This document shows, in pieces, positions 2,242-64,000 of a stretch of 64,000 bases of DNA (position 1 is the stretch's first letter; the number at the start of each line of letters is the position of its first letter). The translations under genes and the position numbers were made by a program. The notes under the pieces are model-generated. The model was given only the letters and a program-made list of their open reading frames with translations. It was not told where the DNA came from and searched no databases. Source of the DNA: Escherichia coli (GTDB lineage Bacteria > Pseudomonadota > Gammaproteobacteria > Enterobacterales > Enterobacteriaceae); NCBI RefSeq assembly GCF_003018255.1, contig NZ_CP027440.1; one strand, 5' to 3'.

Positions 2242-4413
2242 TTAATGATTTTCTTTTTCGCGTAAACGCCATGCGTGTAATAACGGTTCGGTATAGCCGT
2301 TTGGCTGTTTCACTCCGAGGAAGATCAAATCGCAGGCAGCTTTAAAAGCACACGAGTTAGCGAAATTCTCCACCATTGGACGATAAGCCGGATCGCCAGC
2401 GTTTTGCTGATCAACCACTTTCGCCATATTCTCCAGCGACGCCTGCACCTGATCTTTGGTCAGAATACCGTGACGTAACCAGTTGGCGATATGCTGGCTG
2501 GAAATACGCAGCGTTGCGCGGTCTTCCATCAACGCCACGTTGTGAATATCCGGCACTTTTGAACAACCAATCCCCTGCTCCACCCAACGCACCACGTACC
2601 CCAGAATCCCCTGCACGTTGTTATCCAGCTCTTGTTGGATCTCTTGCGCCGACCAATTAGCGTTTTCAGCAACCGGAATAGTCAGCAGATCGTCCAGCAG
2701 CGGTTCAAATTCAGCATTGAACTCGGTCTGGGCAATGTTGGCTTGCACGCTCTGTACGTTGGTTTGGTGGTAGTGCAGCGCATGGAGCGTAGCGGCAGTT
2801 GGCGACGGAACCCAGGCCGTGTTTGCCCCGGCACGCAATTGGTCGCCCTTCTGGCTGTACATGTCTGCCATCAGGTCCGGCATTGCCCACATGCCTTTAC
2901 CGATTTGCGCTTTTCCACGTAGCCCACAGAACAGACCGGAAAGCACGTTATTACGTTCGTAGGCTTTGATCCACGGCGTCGATTTCATCTGGTTTTTACG
3001 CAGCATCGGGCCCGCTTCCATCACCGAATGCATTTCATCGCCGGTACGGTCGAGGAAACCGGTATTGATGAACGCCACGCGGTTGCGCGCCTGAGCGATA
3101 CAGCTACGCAAGTTCAGCGAGGTCCGGCGTTCTTCATCCATAATGCCCATTTTCAGGGTATTCGGTGCCATACCGAGCATTGTCTCAACGCGGGAAAACA
3201 GTTTGTTGGCGAACGCCACTTCCTGCGGACCGTGCATTTTCGGTTTCACAATATAGACGCTGCCAGTGCGCGAGTTTTTCTGCACTTTTAAATCATAGAG
3301 GGCAATCGCGCCAGTCATGACGCCATCAAGAATGCCTTCCGGGATTTCATTGCCTTCGCTGTCCCAAATCACAGGAATGGTCATCAAATGACCCACGTTG
3401 CGGATAAACAGCAACGAGCGTCCGTGCAGAGAAATTTCAGATCCATCGGCGGCAGTGTACTGACGATCGTCATTCAGTTTACGCACGATTTGCCGACCGT
3501 TCTTCTCCATTTTCTCTTGCAGAGTCCCCTGCATCAGGCCCAGCAGGTTGCGGTACAGCAGGATTTTATCTTCCGCATCAACCGCCGCAACCGAATCTTC
3601 GCAGTCGAGAATGGTACTGATGGCCGCTTCGACGATAACATCGTTGATGTGCGCCGAATCGTCTTTGCCAATCCGCCCGTTGGCATCGATTTGTAGCTCA
3701 ATATGCAGGCCGTTATTTTTCAGCAAAATGCAGGTCAGCGCAGCAGTATCGCCACGGTAACCGACAAACTGTGCTGGAGTACGTAACGTGGTTTCTTTAC
3801 CATTTTTCAACTGGATGCGTAATTGTTTATCGACCACCTTAAACGCCACCACATCCTGATAGCTGCCGTTTTCCAGCGGTAGTGATTCATCGAGGAAACG
3901 CCGAACCCAGGCGATAACCTGCTCACCACGCTGCGGATCGTAGCCGCTGACCATCGCCCCTTCCTGCGGGATGATGTCACTGCCGTATAACGCATCGTAC
4001 AGTGAGCCCCAGCGAGCGTTCGCCGCGTTCAGCGCGTAGCGGGCGTTCATCGCCGGAACCACCAGCTGTGGCCCCGCCTGACTGGTGATTTCGCTGTCGA
4101 TGCCCGTGGTTTCCACCGTAACGTGGTCAGGCTGTGGCACCAGGTAGCCCAGTTCACGCAGGAAAGATTTATAGGCCGCTTTATCTTTTACCGGCCCCGG
4201 ATTGCTGCGATGCCACTCATCAAGCGCCGCCTGAATGCGATCACGCTCTGCCAGCAACTGACGATTCTCTGGCGCCAGATCGTGAACGATCTCATCAACA
4301 TTGCGCCAGAACGCGGCAGCGTCCAGTTCCACGCCCGGCAAAACTTCTTCATCCACAAAACGTTTAAAATTGGCGTCAATGCGTAAACGGCCCTGGGTTA
4401 TGGTTTGACTCAT
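2242..4413 (-). CDS. glcB: Malate synthase G, 723 aa
   Basis: ORF length and N-terminus ([13 protein letters not shown]...) match malate synthase G. Confidence 0.95.
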
Positions 4414-15257: not shown

Positions 15258-15292
15258 GCCCGCTGTGGTGTTGCGCCACGGCGGGTTTAATG
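15258..15292. terminator. Convergent hairpin (cccgctgtgg...ccacggcggg) with T-rich tail between the synthase gene and the LptG-like gene
   Basis: About 10-bp stem read from sequence, followed by tttaatg. Confidence 0.4.
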
Positions 15293-16366
15293 TTGTCTGT
15301 CATACCAATACACCAGGCTCAACGCCACCAGCACAAACGCTACCGGTAAACCGAGCGCGGTAACAGGTGCGCTCAACGCAAATAACAATCCCAGATTGAC
15401 CATGATTTGATAGCTGATCCAGGTGAGTAAGCCAACGATGACGCCTACAGCGAGACGGCTACCCATCCCAGGCGAACGCGGGGCGCTAAAGGTAAACGGC
15501 ACAGCCAGCAAAATCATCGCCAGGGTCAAGATGGGTTGTCCCAGTTTTTCCCACAGTGCAAGGCGGTATTCGCTGCTGGGTTGCCCGGTTTCCTGCAAAT
15601 AATGGATGTAATGATTAAGTTGACGGACAGAAAAAGTATTTCCCGGCATCGATAACTCTTCAAGATTCATACTGGTGAAGGCCGATTGCCAGGGAAGATT
15701 ATCAGATGTTTCCTGCGTTTCTTTGCCATTCAGCCATTTTTTATGATTCACACCATGCAGGATCCACGTTTTGTCGTCTTCAATGGTAGCACTGCGCGCA
15801 TAAATGTAGGATTCGAGCGAGAGATCATCGCGGTAATGAAATATCTCCACGTCCACCGGCTGGCCCTGCTCGTTCAGCGATTTCACCGTCACAAATTCAT
15901 TACCACGCCTGGCCCACAGCATATTGCCGGTAATGTCATCGTCCTCCCCCAACGCAGTGGCAGTCGATTTGATTTGCAGCGCCTGTTGCTGCAATGGCGA
16001 CGCCACCCACTCATCTATCGCGCCTAATGAAACAGTCCACAATATCCCGGCAACCAGCGCCACCAGTGCAATACGGAAGATAGAAAACCCCGTGCTGCGA
16101 ATGGCGGTAAGCTCACTGTTTTTCGATAACTGCCCCAGGCCGACAATCCCTCCCAATAAGGCGATAAACGGCGAAAGTTCGACCAGTGTGCGCGGTAAGG
16201 TCATCAGCACCACCAGCACCGCCTGAGTCCAGCGATAACCACCCGGGCTGACATCATCCAGTTCGTTAATCAGGTTGAAGGTGGTAAAAAGCGGCAGCAA
16301 TAGCCCTGCGGCGGCGGCAAAACCGAGAAAGAGATGACGGATTAAATAGCGACTGAAAACATTCAT
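15287..16366 (-). CDS. LptG/LptF-family (YjgP/YjgQ) permease paralog, about 359 aa
   Basis: N-terminus MNVFSRYLIRHLF typical of LptF/G permeases; trimmed to ATG at 16366 overlapping upstream stop (ATGA). Confidence 0.75.
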   Translation of the reverse strand: MNVFSRYLIRHLFLGFAAAAGLLLPLFTTFNLINELDDVSPGGYRWTQAVLVVLMTLPRTLVELSPFIALLGGIVGLGQLSKNSELTAIRSTGFSIFRIALVALVAGILWTVSLGAIDEWVASPLQQQALQIKSTATALGEDDDITGNMLWARRGNEFVTVKSLNEQGQPVDVEIFHYRDDLSLESYIYARSATIEDDKTWILHGVNHKKWLNGKETQETSDNLPWQSAFTSMNLEELSMPGNTFSVRQLNHYIHYLQETGQPSSEYRLALWEKLGQPILTLAMILLAVPFTFSAPRSPGMGSRLAVGVIVGLLTWISYQIMVNLGLLFALSAPVTALGLPVAFVLVALSLVYWYDRQH

Positions 16367-17433
16367 CGGGAAAATTTCTGCAGCAAAGAGAAGTCGCGTG
16401 CGACCAACATCAGCAGGCCCATTAGCATGAGTCCGGGTACTAACCACAAACCAGGAATGAGGGGAATCGCGCCGTTAGCCACCAGCGTACGGCAGACGTC
16501 GCCGCCATAAAAAATGGCAACAAACAGCAACGTCAGTGGCAATAACGTTGAAAATCGCCCTTGCCGCGGTTTTACCCGACTTAATGAAATGGCCAGCAGC
16601 GCCATCAACAATGCTGTCAGGCCACGGCTTTGTCGCCATTGCAGTTCGGCATGATCGGCAGGAAAGGCGGAGCGCGCCAGCTCCGTGACCGATTTTGCTT
16701 TGCGTTTGACGTTAGGGCTTTGATCCAGCGGATTCAGATGTAATTGCAGATTACGGTAGATCTGTTCGTTGTCGTCACGCCCCTGATGATCGAGAAGATA
16801 GGCGGTCCCGTTATGCAACATAACGGTCGGTTTCTCAGGTGATGGGTCAACCACATCAACCGAACGGGCGCGGAAAATGCGGGTTCGATTAGCAGTAGAA
16901 GTATAAATCAGCGCATCAGTCAGGCGATTATTATCCTGATCAACCGTCTGCGAAAGGATCATTCGTCCGTTATCGTTAGTGTTAAATTTCTTTGCCCGCA
17001 ACTGGCGAACATCCAGCTCCGACTGTGACTGTTGCTCCAGTTGATAAATCTGCGCATAAGCCCACGGACGACCATACATCGACAGAAGGGTGACAAAAAT
17101 ACTTAGCGGTATCGCCAGATAAAGAACGGCTTTGTACAAGCGTCCCGGACTGCCCCCCGCCGCAGAGATAGCGGTAATTTCCGAGTCGGTATACATCTGC
17201 CCTAGCGTCACGCCAACTGACACATACAGTCCAACAGGTAACAACATCTCCAGTGCAATCAGCACTTTGTAGAAAACGATATCCAGCACAACATCAAGAG
17301 CTAATGTCCCATTTGCCGCTTCGGTCAGATAACGCTGTGCGGAGTAGCTGGCGAAAATAAAGATCAGAAAACCGACGATAATCAGCACCAGACGGCGCGT
17401 ACCACGCATGATGTAGTGTTCAACCAGCTTCAT
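16363..17433 (-). CDS. LptF/LptG-family (YjgP/YjgQ) permease paralog, 356 aa
   Basis: Polytopic membrane protein with LptF/G-like N-terminus; operon partner of 15287-16366. Confidence 0.75.
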   Translation of the reverse strand: MKLVEHYIMRGTRRLVLIIVGFLIFIFASYSAQRYLTEAANGTLALDVVLDIVFYKVLIALEMLLPVGLYVSVGVTLGQMYTDSEITAISAAGGSPGRLYKAVLYLAIPLSIFVTLLSMYGRPWAYAQIYQLEQQSQSELDVRQLRAKKFNTNDNGRMILSQTVDQDNNRLTDALIYTSTANRTRIFRARSVDVVDPSPEKPTVMLHNGTAYLLDHQGRDDNEQIYRNLQLHLNPLDQSPNVKRKAKSVTELARSAFPADHAELQWRQSRGLTALLMALLAISLSRVKPRQGRFSTLLPLTLLFVAIFYGGDVCRTLVANGAIPLIPGLWLVPGLMLMGLLMLVARDFSLLQKFSR

Positions 17434-34072: not shown

Positions 34073-34260
34073 TTATAGTTATTCCGTTGCGAAGACCTGG
34101 CATATATTTTGCCTCAATCGCAAAATCAATAATGCGATCGATGCGCCATTTACCACACATTTATTATGGTTATCGATATCATGATACTGCGGCGGGGCGC
34201 TAAAACGAAGGGAAGAAGCATTAGTGTAATTAATTAAAGCAAGATAATACGTATGTTTGA
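34073..34260 (-). promoter_or_regulatory. hyb operon upstream control region
   Basis: AT-rich non-coding interval upstream of hybO; regulatory role inferred from position only. Confidence 0.35.
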
Positions 34261-34548
34261 TCAATTTTCGAGGCGATAACCGGCCATAAAAAAGCGCAAC
34301 GTAGAACAGGAATTATTCTCACGAAAGAAATCCATTACCATCTCTTTATCCAGTCCATAGCGGCGCGTCAGAATACCCGCTTCCCAGGCGCTAAGCTGGC
34401 GATCTCCGGTCTTTTCGTACATCCGGTGTGAGTAGCCTAATACAAAACCGCGTTTATAATCGGCACAGTATTTTGTCACATTAACCGCACTGTCGGCATG
34501 CGTTGCTTTTAATCCCGCCATTAAGCCTTTACCAAAATGGTTATTCAT
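34261..34548 (-). CDS. yghW: Uncharacterised protein YghW, 95 aa
   Basis: Length and position upstream of hybO match K-12. Confidence 0.85.
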
Positions 34549-34666
34549 CGTTCACCTCATTCGCTATATATTGCCGTATATAGCGATATTTTAGGCAAAG
34601 AACGACATTTGCGCACGCTATTTTTTCATGCTTGTTTAAGACGTAATCCTGTAAGAGATAAACCCA

Positions 34667-35554
34667 TCAGGAGAGATATTTATCGAACCATTTCAGCGTC
34701 CTTTGCCAGGCAAGATCGGCGGCAGATTTGTCATAACGGGGCGTGGAATCATTATGGAATCCGTGATTAACCCCCGGATATATATACGCCTCATAGACCT
34801 TATTATTGGCTTTCAACGCCGCCTCGTAAGCAGGCCAGCCCTCGTTGATTCGGGTGTCCAGTTCCGCGTAGTGCAACAGTAAAGGCGCTTCAATCTTCGC
34901 CACATCGGCAGTGGGTGCCTGACGACCATAAAACGGCACCGCGCAGGCCAGTTCCGGGTAAGCGACCGCTGCCGCGTTCGATACGCCACCGCCATAGCAA
35001 AATCCAGTAATACCCACTTTGCCTGTCGCTTGCGGATAGCTTTGCATAAACTCAATCGCGGCAAAGAAATCATTCATCAGTTTGGTTGGATCAACCTGCT
35101 GTTGCAGCTCACGACCTTTATCATCATTACCCGGATAACCTCCAACGGAACTTAAGCCGTCAGGTGCCAGGGCGATATACCCCGCCTTCGCCACTCGCCG
35201 CGTCACATCTTCGATATACGGATTCAGTCCACGATTCTCATGCACCACCACCACGGCTGGCGTTTTGCCGCTCATTTTTGCGGGCTTCACCAGATAACCC
35301 CGTACCTCGCCGTGACCATTTGGCGAGGGATACGTGATGTACTCTGCAACAATTTCCGGGTCGGTAAACTCTACCTGAGTCGCCAGCGCATAATTTGGCT
35401 TGAGCAAATCAAACAGCGCTAATGCCGTCATCCCGCCCACCGCATACTTCGCCGCAAGGTTGAGGAACTCACGTTTCGAGATTTTCCCGTGAGCGTAATA
35501 GTCGTAGTAATCCAGCAACTCTTGTGGGAAATCTTTGGCGGTTAAACGCGGCAT
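34667..35554 (-). CDS. yghX: Dienelactone hydrolase-family protein, intact, about 295 aa
   Basis: Continuous ORF (track 308 aa, likely start MPRLTAKDF); alpha/beta hydrolase with GFCYGG nucleophile motif; the K-12 gene at this position is recalled as frameshifted. Confidence 0.8.
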   Translation of the reverse strand: MPRLTAKDFPQELLDYYDYYAHGKISKREFLNLAAKYAVGGMTALALFDLLKPNYALATQVEFTDPEIVAEYITYPSPNGHGEVRGYLVKPAKMSGKTPAVVVVHENRGLNPYIEDVTRRVAKAGYIALAPDGLSSVGGYPGNDDKGRELQQQVDPTKLMNDFFAAIEFMQSYPQATGKVGITGFCYGGGVSNAAAVAYPELACAVPFYGRQAPTADVAKIEAPLLLHYAELDTRINEGWPAYEAALKANNKVYEAYIYPGVNHGFHNDSTPRYDKSAADLAWQRTLKWFDKYLS

Positions 35555-35710
35555 CGTTGCACTCCTCAACTGGTGTTTTTTTAAGCAAAGCATAAGCGCG
35601 TGTTTTTGCCCAGTTTTTCGTCACTCTGTGAGCCAGACTACGGGATACGCGCTGGCGAATCGCTAAACTAGAAACATTGTTTCGAAATTGAACGATGGAA
35701 AGGAGAGGTC

Positions 35711-36751
35711 ATGGTCTGGTTAGCGAATCCCGAACGTTACGGGCAGATGCAGTACCGCTATTGCGGAAAAAGTGGTTTACGCCTGCCCGCGTTATCGCTC
35801 GGTTTATGGCACAATTTCGGTCACGTTAACGCGCTGGAATCACAGCGTGCGATCCTGCGTAAAGCGTTTGATTTAGGCATTACGCACTTTGATTTAGCCA
35901 ACAATTACGGGCCGCCTCCAGGAAGCGCAGAAGAAAACTTTGGTCGCCTGCTGCGCGAGGATTTTGCCGCTTATCGCGATGAACTGATTATCTCTACCAA
36001 AGCCGGATACGATATGTGGCCCGGTCCATACGGCTCTGGCGGCTCACGTAAATACCTGCTCGCCAGCCTCGACCAAAGCCTGAAGCGTATGGGGCTTGAG
36101 TATGTCGATATCTTTTACTCTCATCGCGTCGATGAAAATACGCCGATGGAAGAAACCGCCTCTGCGCTGGCTCATGCTGTACAAAGCGGTAAGGCGCTGT
36201 ATGTCGGGATCTCCTCTTACTCGCCAGAGCGGACGCAAAAAATGGTCGAGTTGCTGCGCGAGTGGAAAATTCCGCTGTTAATTCATCAACCTTCGTACAA
36301 TTTACTGAACCGCTGGGTGGATAAAAGCGGCCTGCTGGATACCTTGCAAAATAACGGCGTGGGCTGCATTGCCTTTACTCCACTGGCTCAGGGATTGCTG
36401 ACCGGAAAATATCTCAACGGTATTCCGCAAGATTCACGGATGCATCGTGAAGGGAATAAAGTTCGTGGTCTGACGCCGAAAATGCTCACCGAAGCCAACC
36501 TCAACAGCCTGCGCTTATTGCATGAAATGGCACAGCAGCGTGGACAATCAATGGCGCAAATGGCGTTAAGCTGGTTGCTGAAAGATGAGCGAGTGACGTC
36601 GGTATTGATTGGAGCCAGCCGCGCGGAGCAACTTGAGGAGAACGTGCAGGCGCTGAATAATCTGACATTTAGCACCGAGGAGCTGGCGCAGATTGATCAG
36701 CATATCGCCGATGGAGAGCTGAATCTGTGGCAGGCGTCTTCCGATAAATGA
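35711..36751 (+). CDS. gpr: L-glyceraldehyde 3-phosphate reductase (aldo-keto reductase), 346 aa
   Basis: Length and position; aldo-keto reductase fold. Confidence 0.92.
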   Translation: MVWLANPERYGQMQYRYCGKSGLRLPALSLGLWHNFGHVNALESQRAILRKAFDLGITHFDLANNYGPPPGSAEENFGRLLREDFAAYRDELIISTKAGYDMWPGPYGSGGSRKYLLASLDQSLKRMGLEYVDIFYSHRVDENTPMEETASALAHAVQSGKALYVGISSYSPERTQKMVELLREWKIPLLIHQPSYNLLNRWVDKSGLLDTLQNNGVGCIAFTPLAQGLLTGKYLNGIPQDSRMHREGNKVRGLTPKMLTEANLNSLRLLHEMAQQRGQSMAQMALSWLLKDERVTSVLIGASRAEQLEENVQALNNLTFSTEELAQIDQHIADGELNLWQASSDK

Positions 36752-55298: not shown

Positions 55299-55406
55299 GG
55301 TATTCCTTACCGGAGAAATTATAAGCCCGACAACAATACGCCTGTGGCATTGTTTGCTCAAACTTATCGCGAGTGATTTGGCTCACACTCCGGTAAAGAT
55401 TCCCCA

Positions 55407-58536: not shown

Positions 58537-58869
58537 CTAATAGCAAAATATAAACCGTCCCCAAAAAAGCCACCAACCACAACCCAGACAAATAACGAGC
58601 GAGAATACATATAGCCAAAACTCGAACATTTCCCGCATAAAGAGTTTTCTTAAGATAAGAATAATAAGTGGTGTCAGAAGAAAAAATGCTGCAATCATTG
58701 CTTGCAATATACGATCTTCGCCTGAAACAGAAGGTATACTGCAAATATTGTCTCCCGACTCAAGCATCCAGTCATACTTATTGAAAGCAAAAAAAGAATC
58801 TATTAACCAATAAGTAAGCATTATATATAATAGTGCTTCAAATATTGATAGTAGTTGTTTTTTTAACAT
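58537..58869 (-). CDS. ygiZ: Small inner-membrane protein (three predicted TM helices), 110 aa; candidate immunity protein
   Basis: Length and position match K-12 ygiZ; start lies 6 bp after the stop of the upstream SLT-like gene; AT-rich. Confidence 0.85.
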   Translation of the reverse strand: MLKKQLLSIFEALLYIMLTYWLIDSFFAFNKYDWMLESGDNICSIPSVSGEDRILQAMIAAFFLLTPLIILILRKLFMREMFEFWLYVFSLVICLGCGWWLFWGRFIFCY

Positions 58870-58875
58870 ATCTGA

Positions 58876-59586
58876 TTACTCATTAATCAATTTTTTGATA
58901 TGTTCTCTAATCTCTAACAACCTCATACCATAAGAGATGAATTTATAATCATCTGTATCACGCGCAGGCAAATTATTAATTAAACAAATAAAAAAGCCCA
59001 AATCTCGTTCAACACCACGATTATATCTAATACCAGCCATAATATACTGCTCATTCGTCATATACAGTGTTGCCGAAGAGGGATAATCAAAAAGGACAAG
59101 ATCTCTTAAATAAGTAGCAGCAATTTGAAAGGTAAAATCATCCTCCATTAGGCATGTCGCTAACTCTAACTGATTTCTGGTAGTTAATTCTGAAGGGTCT
59201 AGACCTAGAGTAATCGCTGCGGTTCGTATTTGTATACCCATTGAGCCAAATGATGTTTTATTTTCAGGCATATCTAACAATCCCATCATTCTTTTTGTTT
59301 CATATATCTGAAACTTATAATTTTCAGGCATACCTCCTGACTCAATCCAGGCCACGCCGCCCAGTAACTCTGGACGAATTCCAGCGGCGTATGCATGTTT
59401 AATTATTTTGTCTCTATTATATTGTACATATGCATCTTTATAAGCATTTAAATAATATACTCCTGAACGGCGACGCGAATCATTTTTTCCTAACTTCCAG
59501 AGTAAAACGTCCATTTCATCCCATTTACGGAACTTCGCTTGTGGAATTGTACAATATCTATTTTTTATAGTGAGATCGCTTTTCAT
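58876..59586 (-). CDS. Lysozyme-like / SLT-domain protein, about 236 aa; putative Hcp-associated type VI effector
   Basis: Motifs in order: catalytic-type WIESGG, then GSMGIQI, then YNRG; ATG at 59586 lies 2 nt after the hcp stop with an AAGGA ribosome-binding site inside the hcp 3' end; track start (TTG, 59613) rejected. Confidence 0.55.
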   Translation of the reverse strand: MKSDLTIKNRYCTIPQAKFRKWDEMDVLLWKLGKNDSRRRSGVYYLNAYKDAYVQYNRDKIIKHAYAAGIRPELLGGVAWIESGGMPENYKFQIYETKRMMGLLDMPENKTSFGSMGIQIRTAAITLGLDPSELTTRNQLELATCLMEDDFTFQIAATYLRDLVLFDYPSSATLYMTNEQYIMAGIRYNRGVERDLGFFICLINNLPARDTDDYKFISYGMRLLEIREHIKKLINE

Positions 59587-59588
59587 AT

Positions 59589-60068
59589 TTAAAAAATCCT
59601 TTCTTCCCAACAACTATATGATTCCGTACTCGCGATATGGTGCTTCCATGTTATATTTTTATAATTAAGAACAATGACCTCTTCCGGCTGATTACCCGCA
59701 TGTGTAATTGAGTGTGGATAACATGTCAGAATATTCGATAAATGTGCTCCTTGCAATTCAATTGTGTAAAACCTTTCAATACAACCGCCAGAATTAACTC
59801 TATAAAAATTAAATACAGCTGATAACTCTTCATTTTCAGAAAGAGCGGCATTTAATAAAGGGGAGGATTTATCTATTGGCTTGTAAAATTTTATGGGGTG
59901 ATGCACTACATTATACTCTCGACTTAAAGAATGGTCGAACTGTAAAACAAAAATTTCATCCACATGATTTATTTGATATTTATTACCAATAGATGCATAC
60001 GAACCACAACCCTCAGAGATCAAACCTTGTATTTTCCCTTTAATTGATAAGTATATGATATTTGACAT
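59589..60068 (-). CDS. hcp: Type VI secretion tube protein Hcp (Hcp1 family), 159 aa, orphan copy
   Basis: Conserved Hcp blocks (H-P-F-K-ID-SSP-L, NITW, C-terminal WEER); no other type VI genes in the window. Confidence 0.85.
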   Translation of the reverse strand: MSNIIYLSIKGKIQGLISEGCGSYASIGNKYQINHVDEIFVLQFDHSLSREYNVVHHPIKFYKPIDKSSPLLNAALSENEELSAVFNFYRVNSGGCIERFYTIELQGAHLSNILTCYPHSITHAGNQPEEVIVLNYKNITWKHHIASTESYSCWEERIF

Positions 60069-60216
60069 ATATATTCTCCATAATCATTTTTTCCGAAAAA
60101 CTCCTGTATCATTTGCATAATACATCTCTCCTGTGGGAGCTTATGGGAAGTTGATTTAAGTATTGTCATTTTCAGAAAATATTTATCCCGCATCGGTGAA
60201 TCAGAGAAAGATCAGA

Positions 60217-60929: not shown

Positions 60930-61244
60930 ATGATTACAGTAATCGCAGAAATCCGTACTCGTCCTGGTCAACATCACCGTCAGGCAGTGTTGGATCAGTT
61001 TGCTAAAATCGTTCCAACCGTACTGAAAGAAGAAGGTTGCCACGGCTATGCGCCAATGGTGGATTGCGCTGCTGGCGTGAGTTTCCAGTCTATGGCACCG
61101 GATTCTATCGTGATGATTGAGCAGTGGGAAAGCATCGCGCATCTTGAAGCGCATCTGCAAACCCCGCACATGAAAGCATATAGCGAAGCCGTAAAAGGTG
61201 ACGTGCTGGAGATGAATATTCGTATCCTGCAGCCGGGGCTTTGA
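60930..61244 (+). CDS. ygiN: Quinol monooxygenase (ActVA-Orf6/ABM family), 104 aa
   Basis: Length and position after mdaB. Confidence 0.93.
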   Translation: MITVIAEIRTRPGQHHRQAVLDQFAKIVPTVLKEEGCHGYAPMVDCAAGVSFQSMAPDSIVMIEQWESIAHLEAHLQTPHMKAYSEAVKGDVLEMNIRILQPGL

Positions 61245-61288
61245 CATTTCTAAAAAGAGGCCGGTGCTGCTACCGGTCTCAGCCCAGA

Positions 61289-62176
61289 TTAGCCATTCTT
61301 TCTTCCCGTTTTCAGTCCTCGATGGAAATCGTTAATTCGCTTAATGGTTTTAACCGCACGCTGCGGCACTGCGGAAGCTACCGACCAGACAATCATTTCC
61401 AGACACAACAATACCGTACCATGTAGCGGCGTTTTCCCTTTTTCATCCCCGCGCGGAACATGAATCACGATACTGGCGTCTTTGCTAAAACGTGAATCCA
61501 GCGCGTTTGTCAGCAAAATAACAGGGATCCCTAGCCGCCTCGCCTCACGAAGCGTTGTCAGCCCTTCCCGGTGCGCTGATTTTTGCGCCATCATGATCAG
61601 AACATCGCCACGTTGAAGCGCGATCAGTTGCTCGGCAAGGCCAATACCCGTACGGTTTAGTGCCGTGGCAGGCAAACCTATGCGGTTGAATAGTCGTGCG
61701 GTATAGTCCGCCAGAATACCCGAAGCGCCAATGCCAAAAATTGCGACTTGCCGTGCCTGCACCAACAACGCTACAGCTTGCGCAAGCGCGTGGCGGTTTT
61801 CAGGCTCTGACAGGACATTACAGGTATACAAATGCCCTTCAAGAACAAAGTCGATTGCGGTGTTAACATCGCTCGTCAAGTTACTCACCGTCGTAGACAT
61901 CTTTTCGCTGGAACTAAGGGCTGGACCAAGCCACTGTTCCAGAGTGCGTTTCAGATCACGCAGCCCGGCAAACCCCAGGGCCTGTATAGCCCTGATAACT
62001 GTGGCATCGGAAGTGTTCAACGTGGCCGCAATTTCCATCGCCGTTTGCTCGAGTACCACTTCACGATGCTCATTAATGTAGCTGGCGACAACTCTTAACC
62101 CAGGCGTTAACTGACTCGCGCGAGTGCGAAAACGCTCACCAAAAATATCAACCCGCACTTTATCTTTCTGGATCAT
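61289..62176 (-). CDS. RpiR/MurR-family regulator (HTH plus SIS domain), 295 aa
   Basis: N-terminal HTH region and C-terminal SIS-like region; start overlaps stop of the upstream binding-protein gene (ATGA). Confidence 0.75.
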   Translation of the reverse strand: MIQKDKVRVDIFGERFRTRASQLTPGLRVVASYINEHREVVLEQTAMEIAATLNTSDATVIRAIQALGFAGLRDLKRTLEQWLGPALSSSEKMSTTVSNLTSDVNTAIDFVLEGHLYTCNVLSEPENRHALAQAVALLVQARQVAIFGIGASGILADYTARLFNRIGLPATALNRTGIGLAEQLIALQRGDVLIMMAQKSAHREGLTTLREARRLGIPVILLTNALDSRFSKDASIVIHVPRGDEKGKTPLHGTVLLCLEMIVWSVASAVPQRAVKTIKRINDFHRGLKTGRKNG

Positions 62177-63120
62177 TTAGCCTCCGGTAGAGGTCGCCCT
62201 GCAATTTGTGATTGTATCTGCGCAGCCATCAGCCCCAGAGATGCAAAGGAGTTAGAAATTGCCTCTTCACGAGAAATCAGCACATAACGCCCGGAACGAC
62301 AGGCAGTCAGAAACTGACACCATCCCGGCATGACTTTTTCCATTGCTGCCAGCTCATCCTGAGGTTTACCACCGGTGTCACCGCGCCAGGTTGCAAAAAC
62401 AAAATCGGCATCCAGTTCAGGTAAACGCTCCGCGCTCACATCCATTCGCCCACCTTCAGGAATGCTCTCAATCAGCGGCGGAAAACGAAAACCCGCATCG
62501 CGTAATACCCGCCCCAGCGAATGATAGCTATGCATCACATTAATTTTTCCCTGGTTTGCCTGAATCACCGATACCGTTATTTTTTGGCTGTCCAGCGTCG
62601 CCTTCAGCGCATTGATTTGTGCCTGATAGCGGCGTTCAAGTATCGCCAGCTGCGACTGCGTTCCTGTAAGTCCTGCCAGCTTGCGATAGATTTCTGGCGC
62701 ACCCCCTTTGAGATGATCAATGCTCACCGTGGGCGCAATTTTTTCAAGTTGTTCAATGGGCGTATTACGGGTCGGTTCTGTGATGATCAGGTCAGGCTTT
62801 GCCGCCACAATCGCTTCAATATCAATATCAGCGGTACCAATAAAGGCGATCGATGAATTATCAAAGTCGACACCTGTCAATAACGCGCCAGATCGAATGA
62901 AATGGCTACCGTCAGGCCGAGTTCGCCCGTGGCTGGCGACAGGAGGTACACCGAGCTCAATCAGAGGAATAGTGATATCAAGATCGTGTAAAGAGACAAT
63001 TCTCTTTGGATGAGCAGGAACAGTGACTTTGCGCCCTAAATCATCAGTAAATACCTGAACAGGTTCTGTTGCACGGGAAAAAAATGACAACAGTATCAGC
63101 AGAGAAAAAAATAAACGCAT
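62173..63120 (-). CDS. ABC-transporter periplasmic substrate-binding protein (siderophore/cobalamin/heme class), about 315 aa
   Basis: Signal peptide (MRLFFSLLILLSFFSRA) then FecB/BtuF-like sequence; track ORF extends 21 codons further upstream. Confidence 0.7.
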   Translation of the reverse strand: MRLFFSLLILLSFFSRATEPVQVFTDDLGRKVTVPAHPKRIVSLHDLDITIPLIELGVPPVASHGRTRPDGSHFIRSGALLTGVDFDNSSIAFIGTADIDIEAIVAAKPDLIITEPTRNTPIEQLEKIAPTVSIDHLKGGAPEIYRKLAGLTGTQSQLAILERRYQAQINALKATLDSQKITVSVIQANQGKINVMHSYHSLGRVLRDAGFRFPPLIESIPEGGRMDVSAERLPELDADFVFATWRGDTGGKPQDELAAMEKVMPGWCQFLTACRSGRYVLISREEAISNSFASLGLMAAQIQSQIAGRPLPEAK

Positions 63121-63130
63121 ATAACTCCCG

Positions 63131-64000
63131 TTAAAAACTGTTCCTGCGCTGCCAGAGCAGTAGCAAAAAAAATGGTCCACCAATCAGTGAGATAATGATT
63201 CCGGCAGGCAGTTGCAAAGGCAAAAAAGCCAAACGACCAATGCTATCCGCCAGAATAACTAACAACGCCCCCGATACCGCGCTCCCCAGCAGTAATGTCG
63301 TCTGCCCGCCACGTAGAATAAAACGTGATATATGGGGTGCTATCAATCCGACAAAACCGATGTTACCAACACACGAAACGCAGACGGCTGTCAGGATTAT
63401 TGGTGCGGCGACACGTAACAACGCCAGACGAGAACTATTCACCCCTAACCCGGTTGCAACCTGATGACCAAGCAGAGCGATATCCGCCGTCCTGGCGGTG
63501 AACAGCAATAAAAGAGCGGCTGGCAACATCCAACAGGCTGAAATACCGACTAACATCCAGTTAGCTGCATGCAGGCTTCCCGATAACCACATCAATGCAG
63601 TTTGTACATCTCGAACATCTGCAGTGGTCATAAATACACCGATACCGGCGGCGAAAAACCAGGAAACACCAATACCAATCAGAACAAATCGCGGGCGGGA
63701 AATATCGCGCGCACAAAAAATCACGATTAAAGCCACCAACAAGCCACCAGCAAGACCAGCCACTGGACGCCAGAACATTCCCAGCATTGGAAACTGGAAA
63801 ATCAGCCACAGCACCGCCACGCTACATCCTTCTTTGACGCCGATTAAACCAGGATCGGCAAGGCCGTTACGCGCAATGGATTGCATCGCGGCCCCCGCCA
63901 TACCTAACATGGCTCCGCATAGCAATGCCATGATGACTCTCGGCAAGCGAATATCCTGCACAATATAACGTGCGTCTGTGCTTACGTTTTCTGGAGCAAA
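63131..64000 (-). CDS. FecCD-family ABC permease, N-terminus beyond the window edge
   Basis: Polytopic membrane ORF; coding frame continues to position 64000. Confidence 0.7.
   Translation of the reverse strand, partial: FAPENVSTDARYIVQDIRLPRVIMALLCGAMLGMAGAAMQSIARNGLADPGLIGVKEGCSVAVLWLIFQFPMLGMFWRPVAGLAGGLLVALIVIFCARDISRPRFVLIGIGVSWFFAAGIGVFMTTADVRDVQTALMWLSGSLHAANWMLVGISACWMLPAALLLLFTARTADIALLGHQVATGLGVNSSRLALLRVAAPIILTAVCVSCVGNIGFVGLIAPHISRFILRGGQTTLLLGSAVSGALLVILADSIGRLAFLPLQLPAGIIISLIGGPFFLLLLWQRRNSF

Follow-up and report, generated by a model that had tools for sequence, protein, structure and literature searches.

Here we report that a 64,000-nucleotide window of Escherichia coli DNA (contig NZ_CP027440.1) very probably carries an intact orthologue of yghX, encoding a cysteine hydrolase of the dienelactone hydrolase (DLH) fold with a leader that is most likely a twin-arginine (Tat)-type export signal. 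An intact yghX is already known: the gene is named by the RefSeq pipeline, and its product has a dedicated NCBIfam model and a crystal structure. It is the standard state in E. coli, so that the initial annotation, which had singled out this gene as uninterrupted where K-12 has a frameshifted copy, was correct but ordinary. We propose that the window gene would be an expressed, vertically inherited enterobacterial gene divergent from gpr, and that its product would hydrolyse an ester, a lactone or a thioester, with Cys186 as the nucleophile, His264 and Asp233 as its activators, a Cys186 acyl-enzyme as the probable intermediate and Glu106 as the presumed counterpart of Glu36 in the Pseudomonas enzyme ClcD. 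Residues 1–58 would serve as a Tat-type export signal, and the folded enzyme would act in the periplasm. YghX is thus a predicted cysteine hydrolase, probably periplasmic and conserved across the Enterobacteriaceae, whose substrate has never been sought, because the model strain has no intact gene.

The yghX coding sequence runs from an ATG at 35554–35552 to a TGA at 34669–34667 and comprises 888 nucleotides (nt) encoding 295 amino acids (Table 1). The boundaries and the continuous reading frame given in the initial annotation are exact, the GFCYGG nucleophile elbow that it described is present, and the strand, absent there, is the minus strand. The encoded protein corresponds to the RefSeq entry WP_001318043.1 (strain RM14723) with 0 non-synonymous differences, and the yghX genes of thousands of genomes in RefSeq share its length, leader and genomic position. 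A longer ORF beginning at an upstream ATG (35593) was considered and rejected, as it lacks a Shine–Dalgarno sequence and as the homologues and the RefSeq proteins begin at MPRL or MTRL. The reading frame is not a chance ORF, because its product matches the NCBIfam model NF041440 (YghX family hydrolase) at 585.9 bits (cut-off 460, E = 1.2e-176) and the Pfam dienelactone hydrolase family PF01738 at 165.6 bits (gathering threshold 21, E = 1.6e-48), and because the yghX DNA of the window has a match of at least 95% identity in 5,425 of 5,426 complete E. coli genomes, with one genome lacking a match. In these complete genomes, yghX is the annotated feature under all but one of the matches listed.

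Table 1. Coordinates of yghX and its features in the 64,000-nucleotide window.
Feature	Coordinates	Strand	Remarks
yghX coding sequence	34667..35554	−	295 codons and a TGA stop, uninterrupted; from the ORF list and translation
Shine–Dalgarno sequence GAGGAG	35562..35567	−	7 nt 5′ of the yghX ATG; read from the sequence; identical in K-12
Conserved leader, presumed Tat-type signal peptide	35381..35554	−	Codons 1–58; PF23678 over residues 1–36
TA of the Tyr37 codon	35445..35446	−	Present in the window; deleted in K-12, giving the first frameshift; from the alignment
CC in CCAACCAAA, Thr157 codon	35085..35086	−	Both C present in the window; K-12 lacks one C, giving the second frameshift and restoring the frame
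Alpha/beta-hydrolase domain, dienelactone hydrolase family	34673..35305	−	Codons 84–294; PF01738
Nucleophile elbow G-F-C-Y-G-G	34988..35005	−	Residues 184–189; Cys186 codon TGC at 34997–34999
Asp233 codon GAC, triad acid	34856..34858	−	Aligned with ClcD Asp171
His264 codon CAC, triad base	34763..34765	−	Aligned with ClcD His202

The yghX product belongs to both the YghX family and the DLH fold family. The NF041440 match spans residues 3–294 and profile positions 1–292 of 292, whereas PF01738 covers residues 84–294. Alignment with ClcD (PDB 4U2C, 1DIN numbering) places Cys186 at ClcD residue 123 and Glu106 at ClcD Glu36. Among 33 diverse homologues of 36–68% identity, Cys186 is conserved in 30, Asp233 in all 33 and His264 in 31, and position 106 is a glutamate in 28. 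The structure that AlphaFold2 predicts for the window protein, with a mean pLDDT of 96.7 and a whole-chain pTM of 0.93, superposes on PDB 4ZV9 at 1.0 Å r.m.s.d. and on ClcD (PDB 1DIN) at 2.3 Å over about 234 alignment columns. The 4ZV9 chain, deposited as an uncharacterized protein of the O157:H7 strain Sakai, is 97% identical to the window protein over residues 59–294, and the six amino acid differences (T59A, V68F, T118A, S135N, S172R and Y229F) all lie outside the triad. A more distant relative, the putative dienelactone hydrolase of Klebsiella pneumoniae (PDB 3F67; 27% identity, E = 7e-23), shares the DLH domain and has a G-F-C-W-G-G elbow, but its 241-residue chain aligns with YghX residues 82–293 only and lacks any equivalent of the YqhI-like, Tat-like leader. 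This difference points to different compartments for the two proteins. E. coli YsgA is presumably also a leaderless member of the DLH family.

At the syntenic position in K-12 MG1655, between yghW and gpr, lies the pseudogene yghX (b4658, 3146856–3147691), overlapped by the 47-codon yqhI (b4755). The two loci share about 97% nucleotide identity, with an essentially identical Shine–Dalgarno sequence, start and first 36 codons, but the window allele has neither of the K-12 deletions, and K-12 makes only YqhI, a 47-residue stump. The frameshifted state of the K-12 copy, which the initial annotation had put forward, was borne out by the alignment, which revealed two frameshifts rather than one. 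The first deletion (2 bp, codon 37) shifts the frame, which meets a stop once 11 codons have been read out of frame, and the second (1 bp, codon 157) returns the sequence to the original frame, so that ...KLMNDFF...GFCYGG... is again in frame 0 through the normal stop. The net loss is three bases; codons 37–157 are out of frame and unreadable, and from there on the original frame is kept, through the nucleophile elbow and the remainder of the C-terminal half. RefSeq flags copies of the K-12 type as "frameshifted".

We counted the two alleles at each site by megablast of 30-mers spanning the deletion junctions against 5,426 complete E. coli genomes; as megablast needs a 28-base exact word, the other allele is left unmatched and each 30-mer counts its own allele only. 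At site 1 (the 2-bp deletion at codon 37), 1,251 genomes have the K-12 junction and 3,336 the intact one, and genomes matching neither 30-mer presumably carry a nearby single-nucleotide polymorphism. At site 2 (the 1-bp deletion at codon 157), the corresponding numbers are 1,198 and 4,214, the two alleles together accounting for 5,412 of the 5,426 genomes. About three quarters of the sequenced E. coli thus have an intact yghX and about 22–23% have the K-12 deletions, although K-12 derivatives abound in the collection and these counts should not be read as population frequencies. An intact yghX clearly predominates and looks ancestral, and it is no peculiarity of this strain. One further genome has lost yghX in another way, retaining only 11% of the gene.

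Among the carriers of the K-12-type junctions are the enterotoxigenic strain ETEC H10407 and numerous isolates from humans, animals and the environment. We considered whether the K-12 frameshifts could be a sequencing or laboratory artefact and rejected this, since the same junctions recur in 1,198–1,251 genomes; their presence in natural isolates marks them as a trait of a lineage. Strain E89 has the 2-bp deletion alone in the alignment, which fits the excess of 53 genomes at site 1 and therefore indicates that the 2-bp deletion came first. The K-12 lesion would then consist of two sequential deletions that some 1,200 genomes of natural and laboratory strains have in common, in which yghX would have been lost by the 2-bp deletion and later hit by the 1-bp deletion.

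The same comparison explains the origin of the small protein YqhI. K-12 YqhI reads MPRLTAKDFPQELLDYYDYYAHGKISKREFLNLAAK followed by CGRRDDGISVV, that is, YghX residues 1–36 and 11 frameshifted residues. The Pfam "YqhI-like" domain (PF23678), which matches residues 1–36 of the window protein, is therefore the front of the YghX leader, and in the best 120 proteins among the homologue matches this domain always occurs together with a DLH domain. YqhI has been confirmed in K-12 by epitope tagging (PMC6001520) and has been reported to be induced under low Mg2+ (PMC11429745); both studies treat it as a small protein, with yghX unmentioned in that connection. Thus, the promoter, ribosome-binding site and start codon of yghX are active even in K-12. 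The phenotype of a yqhI deletion was not complemented by the small protein (PMC11429745), a result that one might expect of a pseudogene stump adjoining the gpr promoter region. What has been studied under the name YqhI, as a small protein induced by stress, is the translated remnant of the yghX leader, which should temper a functional reading of YqhI.

Residues 1–58 of the window protein read MPRLTAKDFPQELLDYYDYYAHGKISKREFLNLAAKYAVGGMTALALFDLLKPNYALA, with TQ directly following, and consist of a pre-motif helix (LLDYYDYYAHG), the motif S-K-R-E-F-L (K27–R28 at 35471–35476), a hydrophobic stretch rich in alanine, glycine and threonine, and A-L-A at residues 56–58. The family consensus at positions 26–31 is (D/S)-R-R-x-F-L, in which R27 is found in 28, R28 in 30 and F30 in 28 of the 33 homologues. 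The h-region (YAVGGMTALALF) is followed by KPNYALA and the TQ dipeptide, with A56 in 20 and A58 in 25 of the 33 sequences. The family consensus follows the pattern of twin-arginine signal peptides. The YghX leader therefore combines a weakly hydrophobic h-region with an A-x-A signal-peptidase site, and the 4ZV9 chain aligns with YghX from residue 59, the first residue after this site. In 12 enterobacterial YghX sequences, the window protein included, K-R invariably takes the place of R-R. K-R is a tolerated variant of the Tat motif. On these grounds, it is fairly probable that the leader is a Tat export signal that would be cleaved, which we consider likelier than a permanent N-terminal domain.

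The strongest competing explanation is that YghX is cytoplasmic and residues 1–58 form a permanent three-helix lid or regulatory cap, in which the Tat-like motif would be a relic or a coincidence. AlphaFold2 predicts three helices, at residues 11–21, 27–37 and 44–51, in the first 60 residues with a pLDDT of 92–96, in a model with a pTM of 0.93, and such high values are unusual for a cleaved signal. Furthermore, leader residues 11–24 are invariant in the 12 enterobacterial sequences, and pairwise identity within the Enterobacteriaceae is 91–92% in the leader against 88% in the enzyme part. The presence of K-R rather than R-R, the short uncharged stretch (only 12 residues, Y37–F48) and the result of a profile search (Pfam and NCBIfam, E ≤ 10), in which neither of the Tat profiles TIGR01409 and PF10518 matched the window leader, are also consistent with a permanent domain. 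By contrast, the R-R-x-F-L motif, the h-region and the A-x-A site are kept at fixed spacing in homologues of only 36–68% identity, and distant members have textbook Tat h-regions. Among seven homologues searched, the only hits were in R-R members and lay below threshold, at 15.8 bits against 16.7 for TIGR01409 (P0137) and 17.7 against 24 for PF10399 (P0142). Moreover, the catalytic domain folds and crystallizes without the leader, as in 4ZV9, and such a leader is present in none of the solved DLH structures compared. We regard a permanent cap as possible but doubtful.

A further reading would reconcile a folded leader with export: the leader may be a module, made up of the conserved L-Y-D-x-Y-x-H helix, the (R/K)-R motif and the h-region, that docks on the hydrolase in the cytoplasmic precursor as an inhibitor, chaperone or quality-control element and is released on export. 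We consider this rather unlikely. If it were true, YqhI and the Pfam "YqhI-like" entry would be pieces of this module rather than a small-protein family of their own, and the low-Mg2+ induction of yqhI and its deletion phenotype would really concern the promoter region of yghX.

Returning to the intact gene with a putative Tat signal, several observations bear on whether it is functional. Among 6 intact E. coli alleles, the 14 pairs with a non-synonymous change have Nei–Gojobori dN/dS values of 0.04–0.15, with dS up to 0.22, which is strong purifying selection. Orthologues of the same length and 85–91% identity occur in Citrobacter, Pseudescherichia, Enterobacter, Kosakonia, Leclercia and Lelliottia, and the divergent gpr–yghX arrangement is also found in the Kosakonia-type locus examined. 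Because the triad and Glu106 are intact, dN/dS is low, the orthologues are conserved and syntenic, and a 97%-identical folded domain has been crystallized, yghX of this strain is likely to be a functional gene, as the initial annotation had supposed; the support for that claim is indirect. A literature search found no enzyme assay and no biochemical or localization data for any YghX, the locus figuring in the papers only as a place for integration or as an item in lists, and a review names yghX only as a bioinformatically proposed candidate for a GXCXG poly(hydroxybutyrate) polymerase (PMC3709699). A promoter and terminator scan of positions 34200–35800 yielded sites in no excess over shuffled sequence and not a single one in the yghX–gpr intergenic region, and is therefore no guide to regulation.

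It is very improbable that the frame is intact merely by chance, yghX being a dispensable gene that is decaying across E. coli and the window allele a relic without function that has not yet been broken. The frameshifts in about 22–23% of the sequenced genomes carry no obvious cost, more extensive loss is seen in at least one genome and a match is lacking in one, and integration at the K-12 locus is routinely treated as neutral (PMC7677707), a practice that follows from the wide acceptance of its pseudogene status. However, the low dN/dS between intact alleles, measured over a dS of up to 0.22, and the retention of length and active-site residues in other genera and in the wider family argue against decay.

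The substrate of the predicted enzyme is not given by its family name. ClcD of Pseudomonas (PDB 1DIN and variants), the founding member of PF01738, shares the alpha/beta-hydrolase fold and the Cys–Asp–His triad with YghX, but the two are only about 25% identical, ClcD lacks the 58-residue leader, and the genomic context of yghX is non-catabolic. The ClcD residues Arg81 and Arg206 are, as we assume, those that bind the carboxylate of the substrate. In the alignment, Arg206 corresponds to Asn268 of YghX, an asparagine in 28 of 33 homologues, and Arg81 probably corresponds to Arg148, an arginine in 18 of 33; an R206A mutant of ClcD is held in the PDB. The arginine pair of EC 3.1.1.45 is thus not retained, and neither a catechol or chlorocatechol gene cluster nor any aromatic-catabolism gene, catechol dioxygenase or cycloisomerase occurs among the neighbours gpr, yqhA, yghA, yghW and hybOABCDEFG. 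Because of the Asn268 replacement and this neighbourhood, we do not file YghX as a true carboxymethylenebutenolidase, and its substrate is probably not a dienelactone derived from chlorocatechol. The name "dienelactone hydrolase" used in the initial annotation therefore stands for the fold family, whereas family membership does not bear out the activity under that name. That YghX is nonetheless a true carboxymethylenebutenolidase of chloroaromatic or catechol ortho-cleavage catabolism is the least credible of the alternatives, as the ClcD-like fold, triad and Glu36 counterpart and a KEGG-style annotation that places yghX in the chlorobenzene and fluorobenzoate degradation maps (PMC9746237) are set against the low identity to ClcD, the loss of Arg206, the gpr, yghW and hyb neighbours and a predicted periplasmic location that would be unfit for a cytoplasmic catabolic pathway.

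The window is collinear with K-12 positions 3131340–3150583 across the yghX locus, where yghX is flanked by hybO and yghW (DUF2623) on one side and by the divergent gpr on the other, as in K-12. The Kosakonia-type loci examined share the arrangement of gpr, a yqhA-like gene and hybO. There, yghX is separated from yghW by a chemoreceptor gene, and yghW was accordingly discarded as a co-transcribed partner of yghX. Elsewhere in the window, 8.4 kb separate yghO from yghQ at the place taken by IS5 in K-12, and the gene set after ygiN differs from that of K-12. In comparison with K-12, mqsRA is absent from the window, and an extra orphan Hcp gene adjoins an ORF without a family match. None of the complete E. 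coli genomes searched is that of the source strain itself, as a 20-kb stretch of the window is matched there at 99.3% at best.

The annotated small protein YqhI of K-12 (b4755, 47 aa) is the translated stump of the frameshifted yghX gene: it consists of YghX residues 1–36 followed by 11 out-of-frame residues. The Pfam family PF23678 ('YqhI-like') therefore represents the front of the YghX leader (residues 1–58). This link between YqhI and yghX is not drawn in the YqhI literature that we found (PMC6001520 and PMC11429745). The leader itself resembles a Tat signal of the K-R variant. Its conservation is unusually high, however, residues 11–24 being invariant across enterobacterial genera, and AlphaFold2 predicts three helices in it (pLDDT 92–96).

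yghX has also been lost by routes other than the double deletion of K-12. E. coli E89 (locus L010, 101–986) carries the 2-bp deletion only and thus looks like an intermediate. In NCTC9041 (match H40), the gene is reduced to its last 11%, and one of the 5,426 complete E. coli genomes searched has no match to yghX at all.

Coordinates of features in the window
Feature	Window position	Strand	Remarks
YghX leader	35381–35554	−	Tat-signal-like, K-R variant
YqhI-matching part of yghX	35447–35554	−	K-12 counterpart: 3598–3741 of the K-12 yghX locus (L001)
yghO–yghQ segment	10754–19139		fatty acyl-AMP ligase, epimerase, acyl carrier protein; serine palmitoyltransferase (spt), LptG-like and LptF-like permeases, YtfJ-family protein
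LptG-like ORF	15287–16447	−	intact
Orphan type VI secretion Hcp/TssD gene	59589–60068	−	TIGR03344, 197 bits
245-aa ORF overlapping Hcp/TssD gene	58876–59613	−	
RpiR/SIS regulator	61289–62176	−	
Peripla_BP_2 binding protein	62173–63183	−	
FecCD-type permease	63131–63961	−	

Elsewhere in the window, several segments differ from K-12. Between yghO and yghQ lies an 8.4-kb segment, in place of which K-12 has an IS5 element; its LptG-like ORF is uninterrupted, whereas the copy in the close relative RM14723 is annotated as frameshifted. An additional 1.3 kb (58848–60140), not present in K-12, separates ygiZ from mdaB and contains the Hcp/TssD gene. The overlapping 245-aa ORF, which matched no Pfam or NCBIfam profile, could be an Hcp-linked effector or immunity gene. 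Past ygiN, where parE is the next gene in K-12, the window departs from K-12 (61243–64000), and the regulator, binding protein and permease encoded there look like an iron-siderophore-type ABC transporter island.

Conversely, the window lacks the mqsR/mqsA toxin–antitoxin pair (K-12 3167820–3168746; corresponding site, window 55400–55404), and ygiS and ygiV are near-adjacent, as they are in RM14723. Also missing are 233 bp of the K-12 yghA–exbD intergenic region (3150584–3150816), at window 38397/38398.
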